From: an uncultured Gemmatimonadales bacterium | GTDB taxonomy: Bacteria > Gemmatimonadota > Gemmatimonadetes > Longimicrobiales > RSA9 | NCBI GenBank assembly: GCA_963798845.1 | Contig: CAWCUS010000005.1 | Coordinates: 224,001 to 288,000 of the forward strand | DNA length: 64,000 bases | Reading direction: 5' to 3' | In this document: positions 3,484 to 7,997 of the stretch, piece after piece | Numbering within the stretch: the stretch's first letter is position 1 | How the letters are laid out: each line of letters opens with the position of its first letter | The notes under the pieces: model-generated | What the model was told of the DNA's origin: nothing | The model's database searches: none | What the model saw: the letters and a program-made list of their open reading frames with translations, nothing else | Program-made: the position numbers and the translations under genes

Positions 3484-4422
3484 CTACACCACCGGTGTGA
3501 GGAGGGGCTCTCCGCGGACGCCGCGCAGCAGGTTCTGCCACGCGAGATCGAACATGGCCTGCCGTGTCTCGCGCGTGGCGCTGCCGACGTGCGGGAGGAG
3601 GACGACGTTGTCGAGCGTCAGGAGCGCCGGCGGGACGCGGGGCTCGTCGGCGTAGACGTCCAGGCCGGCGCGGAGGCGGCCGGCCGCGAGCTCGCGCACG
3701 AGGGCGTCCTCGGCCACGACGTCGCCGCGCGCCGTATTGACCAGGACGGCGCCGTCCCGGAGCGCGGCCAGCACGACGGCGTCGACGATGCCCCGGGTCT
3801 CCGGCGTCGACGCGAGGGTGACGGCGAGCACGTCGGCGCGTTCGGCCAGCTCCGTCAGCGCCGGGACCCACTCGGCCCGGATCTCCCTCTCCCAGTGCGG
3901 GCGACGGCTGCGTCCCCAGTAGGCGACGCGCATGCCGAATGCGCCGGCCCTGCGGCCTACCTCGCGGCCGATCCGCCCCGCACCAATGACGCCCAGCACC
4001 TTTCCGTCCAGTCCCGTTCCCATGAGCTGCGTCGGCCCCCAGCCGCCCCACGCACCCGACCGAACCAGCCGCTCCCCCTCCCCCACCCGCCGGACGACGG
4101 CCAGTATGAGCGCCCAGGTCAGCTCGGCGGTCGCACCTGTCAGTACGTCGGGCGTGTTGGACACGGCGATCCCGCGCATGCGAGCTGCGTCGGTGTCGAC
4201 GTTGTCGTAGCCGACGGCCATGTTCGCGATCACGCGCAGGTCGGGAAGCCGGTCCATCTCCGCGGACCCCAGTCGCCGGGTGAGCAGCGGCAGCACGCCC
4301 ACGTGCGGACCTCCGGCGGGGACCGGCTGCTCGGGCTCGAGCAGGTCGACCGCCACATCGTCGGGATGATCGTGGGCGGCGAGGAAGGTGGCCACTTCGG
4401 CCGAAACGAGGACCCGGCTCAC
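3484..4422 (-). CDS. D-isomer 2-hydroxyacid dehydrogenase (glyoxylate reductase / D-glycerate dehydrogenase-like)
   Basis: AVGYDNVD, NTPDVLT..TAEL, GAGRIG, NTARG, GLDVYADEP, LPHVGSAT. GTG overlaps the tadA stop. Confidence 0.92.
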   Translation of the reverse strand: MSRVLVSAEVATFLAAHDHPDDVAVDLLEPEQPVPAGGPHVGVLPLLTRRLGSAEMDRLPDLRVIANMAVGYDNVDTDAARMRGIAVSNTPDVLTGATAELTWALILAVVRRVGEGERLVRSGAWGGWGPTQLMGTGLDGKVLGVIGAGRIGREVGRRAGAFGMRVAYWGRSRRPHWEREIRAEWVPALTELAERADVLAVTLASTPETRGIVDAVVLAALRDGAVLVNTARGDVVAEDALVRELAAGRLRAGLDVYADEPRVPPALLTLDNVVLLPHVGSATRETRQAMFDLAWQNLLRGVRGEPLLTPVV

Positions 4423-4895
4423 CGGCGGGCGCGGAAGAAGGCGCGAAGCAGATCTCCGGCCTCGTCCTCGAGCACGCCGGTGGTCACGGCCACGTGGTGG
4501 TTGAGGCGAGGGTCCTGGGGGAGGGTGGCCAGGGAGCCGATCATTCCGGCCTTGGGATCGGCCGCGGCGTACACGACGCGACCGATCCGCGCGAGGACCA
4601 CGGCGCCGGCGCACATGGCGCAGGGCTCGAGCGTGACGTAGAGAGTCGCGTCGTTGAGCCACCAGTGACCGAGTCGGTCGGCGGCCCGACGCAGGGCGAG
4701 GATCTCGGCGTGCGCCGTCGGATCGTTGAGGGCGCGGGGCTGGTTGTAGGCTTCCGCCACCAGCTCCCCGCCGGCCACGACCACGGCGCCCACGGGCACC
4801 TCCTCCTCCTCGGCCGCCTTCCTGGCCTGCACGAGAGCCCGCCGCATCCAGCGCTCGTCATCAGGCTGCGGTGGGGTCGTGTCGAGCCCTTCCAT
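4419..4895 (-). CDS. tadA: tRNA adenosine(34) deaminase
   Basis: EVPVGAVVV, DPTAHAE, TLYVTLEPCAMCAGA, DPKAG, FFRARR. Confidence 0.93.
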   Translation of the reverse strand: MEGLDTTPPQPDDERWMRRALVQARKAAEEEEVPVGAVVVAGGELVAEAYNQPRALNDPTAHAEILALRRAADRLGHWWLNDATLYVTLEPCAMCAGAVVLARIGRVVYAAADPKAGMIGSLATLPQDPRLNHHVAVTTGVLEDEAGDLLRAFFRARR

Positions 4896-4896
4896 C

Positions 4897-5571
4897 TCAG
4901 CTGGCGAGAACGCTCTCGGGCAACGCCTTCTCGCGGGCGAGGCCGGCACGCGCGTCGGTCCGCAGGCGCCGGATCACGGCCACGACTCGGCCGAGCACGT
5001 CCACGCCGGTGCGGCGGTTGATGGCCACGGCTGCCGCCGCCGGTCCGGCCGCGGAGAGTATGGGGTCGCCCGACTCCCCGAGGTGGACCCGGCGCACCGT
5101 CGTCTCGCCGGCCACCCGGGCCACGACGATCTCGTTGTCGTCCAGACCTTCCACGGCCGCGGGCTCGACGAGGAGGAGGTCGCCGTCCCAGATCCCGGCC
5201 GCGCGCAGGCCGTCCCCGACCATGGAGATCATGAAGCTGGCGGAGGAGGCGGCGATCTTCCGGTCCAGGGTGAGGCTCTCGAGCGGCTCCTTGAGGGAGG
5301 GCTCGCGCAGGTACACGTCGATGTGCGGGATCGAGACCACGTCGGCCCCGAGATCGAGGCCCAGGAGGTGGACGCCGCGCGAGCGCGAGGAGTCCCGCTC
5401 GATCCACCCCTTGTCGGCCAGCGACTGGAGGAGCTCCGAGACGGACTTCGTGCTCTTGATGTCGAACGCCGCCCCGATGTCACGGATGGACGGCTGGTAT
5501 GTATGGCTGCGAACGTAGTCGACGAGGTAGTCGAGAACCTCGCGCTCGAGGCTGCTCAGAGCATCCGGCAT
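4897..5571 (-). CDS. lexA: LexA-family repressor with degenerate autoprotease domain
   Basis: N-terminal wHTH (QPSIRDIGAAFDIKS..SV...LQSLADKGWIERDSSRSRG) and S24-like C-terminus (GIWDGDLLLV, EIVVARVAGETTVRR, VLGRVVAVIR). Catalytic motifs are altered. Confidence 0.85.
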   Translation of the reverse strand: MPDALSSLEREVLDYLVDYVRSHTYQPSIRDIGAAFDIKSTKSVSELLQSLADKGWIERDSSRSRGVHLLGLDLGADVVSIPHIDVYLREPSLKEPLESLTLDRKIAASSASFMISMVGDGLRAAGIWDGDLLLVEPAAVEGLDDNEIVVARVAGETTVRRVHLGESGDPILSAAGPAAAAVAINRRTGVDVLGRVVAVIRRLRTDARAGLAREKALPESVLAS

Positions 5572-5573
5572 AG

Positions 5574-5646
5574 TTGCCCCTCCTGGGATCGAACCAGGAC
5601 TCTCCTGATCCAGAGTCAGGCGTGTTGCCGATTACACCAAGGGGCA
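5574..5646 (-). tRNA. tRNA-Gln (anticodon CTG), CCA not encoded
   Basis: Minus strand TGCCCCT...CCTGA-CT-CTG-GA-TCAGG...CCTGG-TTCGATC-CCAGG-AGGGGCA-A gives a full cloverleaf with a U1:A72 pair, followed by CTA rather than CCA. Confidence 0.97.
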
Positions 5647-5685: not shown

Positions 5686-5714
5686 ATCGTAGAGACGGCC
5701 CGTCCAGGTGTCAA
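5686..5714 (-). promoter_or_regulatory. sigma70-type promoter for tRNA-Gln/lexA/tadA
   Basis: TTGACA (5714-5709, overlapping the gltX TGA), 17 nt spacer, TACGAT (5691-5686). Confidence 0.8.
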
Positions 5715-7174
5715 CCGGCCGAGGACAGCGCATCGAGGCGAGCCGCGGCAACGTCCAGTCGCGCCAGCGTCCTTTCACGGCCCATGACGACCAGGACCTC
5801 GAAGATCCCGGGGGAAACGGCCGCTCCCGTCACGGCCACGCGCACGGGGTGGATGAGCTTGCCGGCCCCGACCTCGAGATCCCCGGCGAGCTGGCGCAGC
5901 GCGTCCTCGAGCGGCTGCTCCTCCCAGAGGTCCAGGGCGGCATAGGCCTCAGCGAGCCGGCGCAGCCGCGCGGCCACATCGGCCGGCTCCCTGGCCCAGT
6001 GCTTCTGCACGGCGTCCTGCTCGTACGCGACCTCGTCGACGAAGTAGGGGCGCGCCTGCGCGATGATGTCGTCGATCGTGCGCGCCCGCGGCTTCAGGAG
6101 GTCGATGAGCGACAGGAGCCACGGCCGCCGCTGCGCCAGCTCTCCCGGCGCGGCGAGCCCGGCGGCCGCCAGGCGGTCGACGACCAGCGGCTCGAGCCGC
6201 TCCGCGCTGGCCGCGCTCAGGTACTGGCCGTTCAGCCACGCCAGCTTGTCCGTGTCGAACACAGCGCTCTTCTTGCCGATACCCTCAAGCGAGAAGCGGC
6301 CGGTCAGCTCTTCCAGCGACATGAGCTCGGTGTCGTCGCCCGGGGACCAGCCGAGGAGCGCCAGGAAGTTGACCATGGACTCCGGCAGGATCCCCTCCTC
6401 CCGGTACTGCCCCACGGCCGTGGCGCCGTGGCGCTTGCTCAGCCGCCTGCCATCACTCCCCAGGATCATCGGCACATGGGCGAACGTGGGGATCTGCCAG
6501 CCGAGGGCGTCGTAGAGGAGGATCTGCTTCGGCGTGTTGGACAGGTGGTCGTCGCCCCGGATCACGTGCGTGACACCCATGTCGTGGTCGTCGCTCACCA
6601 CGGCCATGTTGTAGACAGGCGTGCCATCGCTGCGCAGGACGATGAAATCCTCGATGTCGCCGTTGTCGAAGCGGGTATGCTCGTGCACGGCGTCGTGCCA
6701 CGCCGTTTCCCCCTCCGGCACTGCGAAGCGGACCGTGTACGGCTGGCCCGCCGCCGCCCTCCGCTCCGCTTCCTCCGGCGACACCGTGAGCAGGCAGCGC
6801 CGGTCGTACCGGTAGCCCTCCCCCTTCTCCTCCGCTGCTCGCCGCCGTTCGTCCAGCGATTCGGGGGTGCAGAAGCAACGGTAGGCGCGCCGATTCTCCA
6901 GCAGCCGAACCGCATCACGGCGGTGACGCTCGAGCCCGTCCGCCTGGTGGTGCGGTCCCTCGTCCCAGTCCAGGCCCAGCCACTCCATGCCGTCGAGGAT
7001 GGCCTGGGTCATGGCGTCGCTCGAGCGCTCGCGGTCGGTGTCCTCGATCCGCAGGATGAACGTCCCGGCGTGGCGCCGCGCGAACAGCCAGTTGAACAGC
7101 GCCGTGCGCGCGCCCCCCACGTGCAGGTACCCGGTCGGCGACGGCGCGAAACGCACCCGGACCTTCTCGCTCAC
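5711..7174 (-). CDS. gltX: Glutamate--tRNA ligase
   Basis: VRVRFAPSPTGYLHVGG (HIGH), LRIEDTD, HVIRGDDH, RLSKRHG (KMSKS), anticodon-binding domain. GTG start after a G-rich RBS. Confidence 0.97.
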   Translation of the reverse strand: MSEKVRVRFAPSPTGYLHVGGARTALFNWLFARRHAGTFILRIEDTDRERSSDAMTQAILDGMEWLGLDWDEGPHHQADGLERHRRDAVRLLENRRAYRCFCTPESLDERRRAAEEKGEGYRYDRRCLLTVSPEEAERRAAAGQPYTVRFAVPEGETAWHDAVHEHTRFDNGDIEDFIVLRSDGTPVYNMAVVSDDHDMGVTHVIRGDDHLSNTPKQILLYDALGWQIPTFAHVPMILGSDGRRLSKRHGATAVGQYREEGILPESMVNFLALLGWSPGDDTELMSLEELTGRFSLEGIGKKSAVFDTDKLAWLNGQYLSAASAERLEPLVVDRLAAAGLAAPGELAQRRPWLLSLIDLLKPRARTIDDIIAQARPYFVDEVAYEQDAVQKHWAREPADVAARLRRLAEAYAALDLWEEQPLEDALRQLAGDLEVGAGKLIHPVRVAVTGAAVSPGIFEVLVVMGRERTLARLDVAAARLDALSSAG

Positions 7175-7214: not shown

Positions 7215-7997
7215 TCATTGGCCCCGACGACGTCGTTCGCGCCCCCGGCCCCGCTCCAGCCTCGCCTCGTGCCGCTCACGAACCCCCTCGACGCGCGCCT
7301 GGTGTCGGTCCACGTGACGCTGGAGCCGGTTCTCGTTGCGCGATACCGGGTCCTCCCGCGAGCCGCGCGTGTCGCCCCGCTCCCTCACCTTGATCGATAC
7401 GCCACCCATGAGGGCGAATCCGCTGATCCGGATCACGGGCGCGTCCGGCGGCGGATCGTTGTTCAGCTCCGACACCTGGTCGAACCCGCCCAGCAAAGCG
7501 AAGCCCTGTGTCTCCACGTGCACGTCGGGCGGTACGGTGATGTCCACGCCGCCCCAGAATGCGAAGCAGTTGATCTCCGTCACGCCCTGCCGAAGCACCG
7601 CATCCCGGAAGTCCAGCTCCACGCCCCCCATCACCGCCGCCACCATCATCTCCGACGGCGGCGCCCACCGGCCCGCCCGCCGCGTCCCGCCCATGATGGC
7701 GATGGCTACGTGCCCCGCTTCGTGGATCGCCTGCGTGGAGCGCGCCGGCGTGGAGCGCGCCGGCGGGTCCCGCTCCGGCGGCCGCTGTGCTTCCTCCCGC
7801 ACGGCCGGCGGCGACGGCGCCGGGGCGTTCAGGTCGGCCAGCAGCGCATCCAGCTGCTGTCGGCTTTGCGCCGTACGGGCACGCTCCAGCCGCCGCTCCA
7901 GCTCGCCCAGGGAAAGGGCGTCGTCGGCGAAGCGGCGGCAGAGCGCGTCGATCGTGTCCTCGCGCGCGGTCTGGAGCCCCGTCAGTCGATCGTTCAT
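7215..7997 (-). CDS. DUF1707 (SHOCT-like) plus LiaF/DUF2154-like protein
   Basis: N-terminal RE..IDAL...FADDALSLGELERRL...LDALLADL, followed by repeated MGG/WGG beta units (MGGVELDFR, FWGGVDITVP, ISGFALMGGV). Confidence 0.8.
   Translation of the reverse strand: MNDRLTGLQTAREDTIDALCRRFADDALSLGELERRLERARTAQSRQQLDALLADLNAPAPSPPAVREEAQRPPERDPPARSTPARSTQAIHEAGHVAIAIMGGTRRAGRWAPPSEMMVAAVMGGVELDFRDAVLRQGVTEINCFAFWGGVDITVPPDVHVETQGFALLGGFDQVSELNNDPPPDAPVIRISGFALMGGVSIKVRERGDTRGSREDPVSRNENRLQRHVDRHQARVEGVRERHEARLERGRGRERRRRGQ

Follow-up and report, generated by a model that had tools for sequence, protein, structure and literature searches.

The reading frame at positions 4897..5571 (minus strand) of the window, by which we mean the whole stretch of 64,000 nucleotides analysed here, does not encode the LexA of its cell but a paralog, which we call LexA2. 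In our judgement LexA2 is quite likely a vertically inherited pseudo-protease that acts as a dimeric, DNA-binding regulator blind to DNA damage. As its predicted fold and the selection on its gene suggest, it would still fold as LexA, bind DNA by means of a winged-helix domain that is strongly conserved, and dimerise through its S24-like C-domain; since RecA*-stimulated self-cleavage appears to be lost, it would act as a transcription factor that does not respond to DNA damage. Its orthologs form a natural series within one gene, from cleavable proteins (families f3 and f5), through proteins in which the scissile bond is lost and Ser and/or Lys are kept, to proteins that have lost all three. 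The series reveals in what order a self-cleaving switch is taken apart, and it provides natural controls for the role of a LexA scaffold uncoupled from RecA.

A LexA paralog beside a canonical LexA and RecA

The genome to which the window belongs (4.26 Mb in 6 contigs) contains a second lexA match on contig 4 (207.2 bits), whose product carries VAAG, GDSM and TVKR and is referred to here as LexA1, as well as a gene encoding RecA (462 bits). Because a canonical LexA1 and RecA are both present, the SOS function is covered elsewhere in the genome. Many LexA2 proteins are labelled 'repressor LexA' by annotation pipelines, a label from which two SOS repressors would be wrongly deduced. The features of the locus are the following:

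5711..7171, minus strand: gltX, glutamate--tRNA ligase, upstream of lexA2 (TIGR00464, 521.9 bits against a cut-off of 289.95)
5686..5714, minus strand: sigma-70-type promoter TTGACA-17-TACGAT before tRNA-Gln-lexA2-tadA, overlapping the gltX stop codon
5573..5646, minus strand: tRNA-Gln(CUG) (ARAGORN; Rfam tRNA, 64 bits at 5574-5646)
4897..5571, minus strand: lexA2, 224-residue LexA paralog (open reading frame; LexA_DNA_bind and Peptidase_S24; LexA as top structural match)
5356..5571, minus strand: N-terminal winged-helix DNA-binding domain of LexA2, residues 1-72 (Pfam, VIA-align, dN/dS)
5257..5355, minus strand: linker and former cleavage-site region, residues 73-105 (alignments, dN/dS)
4960..5256, minus strand: degenerate S24-like C-terminal domain, residues 106-204 (Pfam, VIA-align, dN/dS, dimer model)
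4900..4959, minus strand: variable C-terminal tail, residues 205-224, predicted to be disordered (pLDDT, dN/dS)
4419..4895, minus strand: tadA, tRNA adenosine(34) deaminase (NCBIfam TadA equivalog, 185.2 bits against a cut-off of 150)

The lexA2 frame is intact from its ATG to the TGA at 4897-4899, and its GC3 of 0.93 is as in a real gene of this genome. An earlier note on this DNA had proposed looking for the two LexA domains by HMM and for a second, canonical lexA; the latter is the lexA1 described above, and Pfam placed both domains in LexA2, LexA_DNA_bind (PF01726) at residues 5-66 (E 7.9e-16) and Peptidase_S24 (PF00717) at residues 98-197 (E 4.2e-11, 43 bits against a cut-off of 23.3). 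Compared with the NCBIfam lexA equivalog TIGR00498, the protein scored 104.2 bits, under the cut-off of 110.95. The N-domain is nearly invariant across the LexA2 proteins of all four families sampled (f1, f2, f3 and f5), and in an alignment of the close clade the invariant columns fall mostly within it. The recognition helix reads STKSVSELL in the window, STK[TS]VSE[HL]L across families and SLATVHEHL in the LexA1 of the same genome, and since it differs from that of LexA1, LexA2 is expected to recognise an operator other than that of LexA1. The C-domain is only 27% identical to that of the same LexA1, and the tail of residues 205-224 has no counterpart there; the last residues of many f2 orthologs are ...TAH or ...VAH. 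Within the linker, relatives share the motif PH[IV]DVHLxDPSL, where the LexA2 of the window has PHIDVYLREPSL.

The AlphaFold2 model of LexA2, built on 76 relatives, reached a mean pLDDT of 86.0 and a pTM of 0.63, with values of pLDDT below 50 at residues 211-223. Its top Foldseek matches were LexA structures, that of T. maritima (3k2z, 1.1e-14) followed by E. coli LexA, and VIA-align superposed the modelled N-domain on the LexA DNA-binding domain 1lea (Z 11.4, rmsd 1.9, 71 residues) and the modelled C-domain on that of E. coli LexA, 7zra_B (Z 14.3, rmsd 3.8, 124 residues). A homodimer of residues 72-208 was predicted with a score of 0.66 (best of three controls, 0.00), passing a mark that 20 of 30 proteins solved as one-chain pairs and 1 of 23 solved as single chains also attain, though resemblance to known structures may account for the pass, because LexA dimers have been solved. 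Contact agreement among the dimer runs was at least 82% and partner pLDDT at least 78. The predicted interface comprises residues 77-78, 98, 100-103, 105-106, 126, 128, 147-148 and 195-203. Conserved C-domain residues of the close clade are L102, D103, R104, G194, R195, V199, R201, L203 and R204, together with a GI.DGDLL core, and the invariant or nearly invariant columns of this domain coincide with the predicted interface at 98-106 and 195-203. The model supports dimerisation of LexA2 through its S24-like C-domain.

The lexA2 gene is under purifying selection. Using the Nei-Gojobori method and a congener (G208) with a LexA2 80% identical to that of the window, we obtained dN/dS values of 0.19 for the whole protein (dS 0.61), 0.107 for the N-domain, 0.177 for the linker, 0.194 for the C-domain and 0.33 for the tail, which is the least constrained part (range 0.33 to about 1). 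More distant pairs gave 0.33-0.39 overall and 0.45-0.57 for the C-domain, values rendered unreliable by a dS of 0.70-1.05. At an N-domain identity of 0.8-0.9, the mean C-domain identity was 0.45 in f1/f2 (170 pairs) versus 0.65 in f3/f5 (5 pairs); once cleavage had been lost, the C-domain came under weaker constraint than the N-domain, yet it was not set free.

LexA-type pairs recur in part of the phylum. Among the 201 genomes surveyed, including the unpublished G057, G097, G157 and G182, two separate LexA-type matches, which are not to be read as copy numbers, were detected in 5/5 genomes of f1 (the family of the window, which includes G000), 19/23 of its sister family f2, 3/3 of f3, 0/96 of f4, 29/38 of f5, 1/1 of f6, 0/11 of f7, 0/3 of f8, 0/2 of f9, 1/13 of f10, 0/3 of f11 and 0/3 of f12. 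A LexA2 match at E <= 1e-20 occurs in 60 of the 73 genomes of the window's family, a tally that includes the unpublished G248 and G251, and in 36 of the 44 of high quality.

Loss of the cleavage determinants and its order

As reference sites in E. coli LexA we take the scissile bond to be A84-G85 and the catalytic residues to be S119 and K156. In a residue alignment to E. coli LexA structures, VAAGEP corresponds to V86-Y87-L88-R89-E90-P91 of LexA2, GMSM to G119-D120-G121-L122 and TVKR to T158-V159-R160-R161; the A84-G85 column is thus occupied by L88-R89 (codons CTG CGC at 5310-5305), the S119 column by G121 (GGC, 5211-5209) and the K156 column by R160 (CGC, 5094-5092). A profile comparison with the canonical LexA of the same genome (probability 99.5) returned identical Ser and Lys columns and set the scissile pair one residue further, at R89-E90, and neither Ala-Gly nor Cys-Gly is present at the scissile position in either register. 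The lysines of the protein lie at 39, 42, 54, 94, 105 and 215 and none falls in the folded C-domain (106-204), so that a substitute active-site lysine, which the earlier note had named as a finding that would speak against its reading, is absent as far as the sequence allows one to judge. These replacements agree with that note, which had described a LexA-type DNA-binding domain with all three determinants missing. The Ser/Lys dyad of active S24 peptidases is replaced by Gly and Arg, and LexA2 keeps both domain folds without the catalytic features by which LexA proteins and S24 peptidases are defined. LexA2, in which other residues stand for the scissile Ala-Gly, for the Ser nucleophile and for the Lys base, should be incapable of RecA*-stimulated self-cleavage, an argument drawn from sequence and profile alignments and from the absence of Lys. 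Chance or sequencing error is ruled out, because orthologs of other genomes carry the same kind of replacements.

The evolutionary course of these losses was followed in 57 LexA2 loci (32 of f1, 17 of f2, 3 of f3 and 5 of f5) together with LexA1 from 21 genomes, all 21 of these copies having VAAG/IAAG, G[DNS]SM and the catalytic Lys. A quick IQ-TREE search on the 78 proteins left 28 of 75 inner branches unresolved; in the resulting tree LexA2 is monophyletic (SH-aLRT 100, stem length 1.09), its clade consists of Gemmatimonadota/Longimicrobiales MAGs and its branching matches the family labels, f5 first, then f3, then f1 and f2 together (99). The outgroup rows are not monophyletic, and Gemmatimonadota LexA sequences alone provide the root of the clade; LexA2 may stem from an old duplication or from a transfer. 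The determinants are distributed as follows:

f5: Ala-Gly 5/5, Ser 5/5, Lys 5/5; all three lost in 0
f3: Ala-Gly 3/3, Ser 3/3, Lys 3/3; all three lost in 0
f2: Ala-Gly 0/17, Ser 1/17, Lys 0/17; all three lost in 16/17
f1: Ala-Gly 0/32, Ser 13/32, Lys 7/32; all three lost in 16/32

Two of the intact rows, L006 (G097) and L027 (G157), are unpublished, and the intact counts become 2/2 (f3) and 4/4 (f5) when they are set aside. Neither Ala-Gly nor Cys-Gly occurs at the aligned site in any of the 49 f1/f2 loci, and the 120 top-ranking database homologs of the window's LexA2 include none with Ala-Gly, 46 with Ser and 11 with Lys, 71 of them lacking all three. Parsimony on the LexA2 tree requires one change for Ala-Gly, at least eight for Ser and at least seven for Lys, the last two being minima on an uncertain topology because the tree is a quick one with the unresolved branches mentioned above. 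Given one change against at least eight and at least seven, the scissile bond went first and only once, in the common ancestor of f1 and f2, and the dyad decayed many times afterwards. On the tree, the ancestor appears as a cleavable LexA2 at the same locus. Repeated, independent changes of Ser and Lys are as expected if these residues had been freed from selection. The losses, which had previously been described as coordinated, are better described as stepwise.

The gltX-tRNA-Gln-lexA2-tadA locus

The minus-strand order of the locus is gltX, promoter, tRNA-Gln(CUG), lexA2 and tadA. TTGACA-17-TACGAT is the sole promoter-like site in 3.3 kb, versus 0.1 expected, and a TTGACA...TACGAT/TACCAT element recurs at orthologous lexA2 loci. 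The ATG of tadA lies 1 nt past the lexA2 stop codon, and tadA directly follows lexA2, as in the window, in 52/52 loci of f1-f3 (32/32, 17/17 and 3/3, respectively) and in 0/5 of f5. The gltX gene is found upstream of lexA2 in 41/57 loci (25/32 in f1, 9/17 in f2, 2/3 in f3 and 5/5 in f5), and in one f7 genome devoid of LexA2 gltX is directly followed by tadA. Apart from tadA and gltX, no conserved neighbour gene of lexA2 emerged as a partner candidate. LexA2 is a conserved, unstudied regulator of a widespread and poorly cultured soil and sediment phylum, paired with the gene of an essential tRNA deaminase.

Operator searches yielded little. Exact inverted repeats (arms of 4-6, spacer of 0-12) in the 57 regions upstream of lexA2 corresponded to tRNA stems only, and relaxed dyads (tRNAs masked, one mismatch), GC-rich where found, were in no case shared by more than 15-18 of the 57 regions. 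The regions upstream of gltX in 19 genomes and the window displayed no common context and no conserved operator, and a scan with classic SOS-box patterns did not bring up an obvious box at the lexA1, recA or lexA2 genes of this genome. As the searches before both lexA2 and gltX failed to reveal a conserved operator, a LexA2 regulon and autoregulation are unsupported. The best clue to a target is the pairing with tadA, and because it is invariant, the lexA2-tadA operon would be the most likely target of LexA2.

Translation of lexA2 in the window might draw on the preceding tRNA. A gap of 1-2 nt separates the 3' end of tRNA-Gln from the ATG of lexA2, and the AGGAGG at -13..-8 is supplied by the 3' strand of the T-stem and acceptor of the tRNA. 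A same-strand tRNA-Gln(CUG) occurs upstream of lexA2 in 15/32 f1 loci and in 0/25 loci of f2, f3 and f5, and it abuts the start codon (gap of 1-2 nt, ...CCAGGAGGGGCAA[CT]TATG) in 6/57 loci, all of them inside one 11-member subclade (SH-aLRT 99). In G266 (L037) the body of the tRNA is gone and its last 15 nt are kept before the ATG, right after the same promoter; this retention without the tRNA body argues that the 3' stretch serves as the putative ribosome-binding site of lexA2. A GGAGG within -18..-4 is present in 26 of the 50 loci with an assigned lexA2 start codon, and a second tRNA-Gln(CUG) is encoded elsewhere in the window genome. The earlier note had suggested tRNA-coupled expression as the off-switch that replaced cleavage. 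As a general replacement this was rejected, since abutment, seen in 6/57 loci and confined to one subclade, covers far fewer loci than does the loss of cleavage (49/49 in f1/f2); tRNA coupling cannot be the general off-switch.

Alternative readings and known systems

The view that lexA2 is retained as a non-cleavable regulator, and is neither decaying nor a product of sequencing error, had been put forward before the genome was known, and it is supported by the second lexA, the dN/dS values, the orthologs in tens of genomes and the LexA-like predicted fold. A duplicate drifting neutrally after loss of activity is disfavoured, and we give it hardly any probability. The C-domain does outpace the N-domain to a greater degree in f1/f2 than in f3/f5, Ser and Lys were lost mosaically and the equivalog score lies under its cut-off; however, the frame is open in 57/57 loci, the comparison with the congener gives a dN/dS of 0.19 for the whole gene, which does not fit the neutral evolution considered in the earlier note, and of 0.194 for the C-domain, the linker motif of the close clade is newly conserved, the gene is kept in 60/73 genomes of the family (E <= 1e-20) and its position before tadA is invariant. 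It is also very unlikely that LexA2 is primarily an SOS modulator, either a non-cleavable decoy on RecA* filaments or a heterodimer partner of LexA1. The retained fold of the LexA C-domain is the RecA*-binding module of solved complexes (8trg, 8gms and 8s7g were matched), but the most conserved part of LexA2 is the DNA-binding domain (dN/dS 0.107, invariant columns), which a decoy would not need, its C-domain is only distantly similar to that of LexA1 (27% identity) and the former cleavage-site region, which docks on RecA*, is replaced.

Alternatively, LexA2 might still be switched off in another manner, through cleavage in trans by the LexA1 C-domain, proteolysis by Lon or by ClpXP via the tail, or an antirepressor, in which case DNA damage or another stress would still remove it. 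ClpXP degrades LexA fragments, and a tail (205-224) that is absent from LexA1 and predicted to be disordered, ending in ...TAH or ...VAH in many f2 orthologs, could be suited to such a route. Nevertheless, this reading is improbable in our view, given that 49/49 f1/f2 loci have neither Ala-Gly nor Cys-Gly at the aligned site, that the tail is the least constrained part (dN/dS 0.33 to about 1) and that no conserved adjacent partner gene exists besides tadA and gltX. A further and more elaborate proposal, to which we assign a small probability, makes LexA2 and TadA an obligate regulatory pair: an SOS-type repressor would first have put tadA under DNA-damage control in the gltX/tRNA-Gln neighbourhood, a damage-blind rewiring would have followed in two Longimicrobiales families, and in the subclade of the window LexA2 synthesis would be set by tRNA-Gln maturation, because the 3' strand of the T and acceptor stems of the tRNA doubles as the Shine-Dalgarno sequence of lexA2. 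If true, the pair would link the SOS system to tRNA editing and would be a case of bacterial translation gated by tRNA processing.

The reading of LexA2 as a damage-blind regulator finds its closest parallel in cyanobacteria. The LexA of Synechocystis sp. PCC 6803 is the only LexA known in its cell. Ala-Gly is changed to Gly-Gly and Ser to Asp in this protein (PMC3091678; PMC7567884), which regulates non-SOS genes and for which tuning by phosphorylation has been proposed (PMC7567884). Like it (PMC3091678), LexA2 combines the two domains of LexA with replacements at the scissile bond and at the nucleophile; unlike it, LexA2 lacks all three determinants, coexists as a paralog with a canonical LexA1 and with RecA, and has orthologs in sister families that are still canonical, so that a graded evolutionary series is available. 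An origin of LexA2 independent of the cyanobacterial LexA is presumed, on a tree that covers Gemmatimonadota LexA sequences only.

The second LexA of Leptospira interrogans, which is encoded in a prophage-like region and is 28% identical to its LexA1, has its own operator and autoregulation; it retains both the Ser/Lys dyad and a scissile Cys-Gly bond, and UV treatment depletes it (PMC3789691). The f3 and f5 orthologs of LexA2 resemble this cleavable second LexA, whereas the LexA2 of the window has lost the determinants and resides in a conserved housekeeping locus, gltX-tRNA-Gln-lexA2-tadA. The non-canonical S24 repressors of Bacteroidetes, which were found by comparative genomics and are lineage-specific, keep all determinants (PMC8565304); LexA2 differs in having lost them, and also in that a canonical LexA is encoded in the same genome. 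With the canonical LexA proteins solved from E. coli, T. maritima and M. tuberculosis, LexA2 shares both domain folds and a predicted C-domain dimer, and it departs from them in the missing Ala-Gly, Ser nucleophile and Lys base and in its recognition helix, STKSVSELL. A full-text search of the main texts of openly readable papers retrieved no work on a Gemmatimonadota LexA paralog or on a series from cleavable to dead LexA. Non-cleavable regulators of the LexA type are already known from Synechocystis; what LexA2 adds to them is the orthologous series that leads from cleavable to dead proteins, together with the strict pairing with tadA.

Translation start of lexA2 next to tRNA-Gln

The LexA paralog gene without cleavage determinants, lexA2, begins almost directly behind a tRNA gene:

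5569-5646, minus strand: tRNA-Gln(CUG) together with the abutting lexA2 start codon
4897-5571, minus strand: lexA2

Only 1-2 nt separate the 3' end of tRNA-Gln(CUG) from the lexA2 start codon, in the window as well as in loci L004, L033, L035, L036 and L038 of its relatives, and this abutment is kept in six loci, all belonging to one subclade. Where the tRNA abuts the start, the sole Shine-Dalgarno-like sequence before lexA2 is AGGAGG at −13 to −8, which itself belongs to the 3' strand of the T and acceptor stems of the tRNA. Initiation of lexA2 translation would thus require one of two templates, a tRNA-mRNA precursor that has not been processed or a processed RNA with almost no leader.

In genome G266 (L037, 1400-1503) the tRNA body is absent upstream of lexA2, the last 15 nt of the tRNA (CCCAGGAGGGGCAAC) still lie immediately 5' of the lexA2 ATG, and they are preceded by the same promoter as elsewhere, TTGACA-N17-TACGAT. 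As judged from its sequence, this stretch looks like a tRNA remnant retained as ribosome-binding site.

Leader and C-terminal variants among relatives

In a single genus of the window's family (L044, L048, L052 and L055), a long GC-rich hairpin, GGGGCGTG...CACGCCCC, lies between the promoter and lexA2, ∼170 nt upstream of the gene, occupying the place of the tRNA in other loci. A T-rich run comes after it, and the two elements together look like an attenuator.

Many LexA2 orthologs of the sister family end in ...TAH or ...VAH. Those of L012, L013, L018, L025 and L029, from a single genus of that family, carry an Arg-rich C-terminal extension of ∼25 aa (...RRWRRSSRRIADAREGRGRRDRQHR), whose coding sequence overlaps the tadA start in a different frame.

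Neighbouring ORFs and the gltX-tadA pair

Three ORFs near lexA2 are as follows:

7215-7997, minus strand: 260-aa ORF immediately upstream of gltX, overlapping the longest gltX ORF
4419-4895, minus strand: tadA
3484-4662, minus strand: longest ORF of a 2-hydroxyacid dehydrogenase, 392 aa

No NCBIfam match at E <= 1e-5 was found for the 260-aa ORF. The dehydrogenase ORF overlaps tadA by ∼240 nt. As its Pfam match begins only at residue 131, translation probably starts a good way inside this ORF and not at its first start codon.

In G196 (L083), from a family that lacks LexA2, tadA directly follows gltX. Either gltX and tadA were neighbours first and lexA2 was later inserted between them, or lexA2 has been lost from this position.
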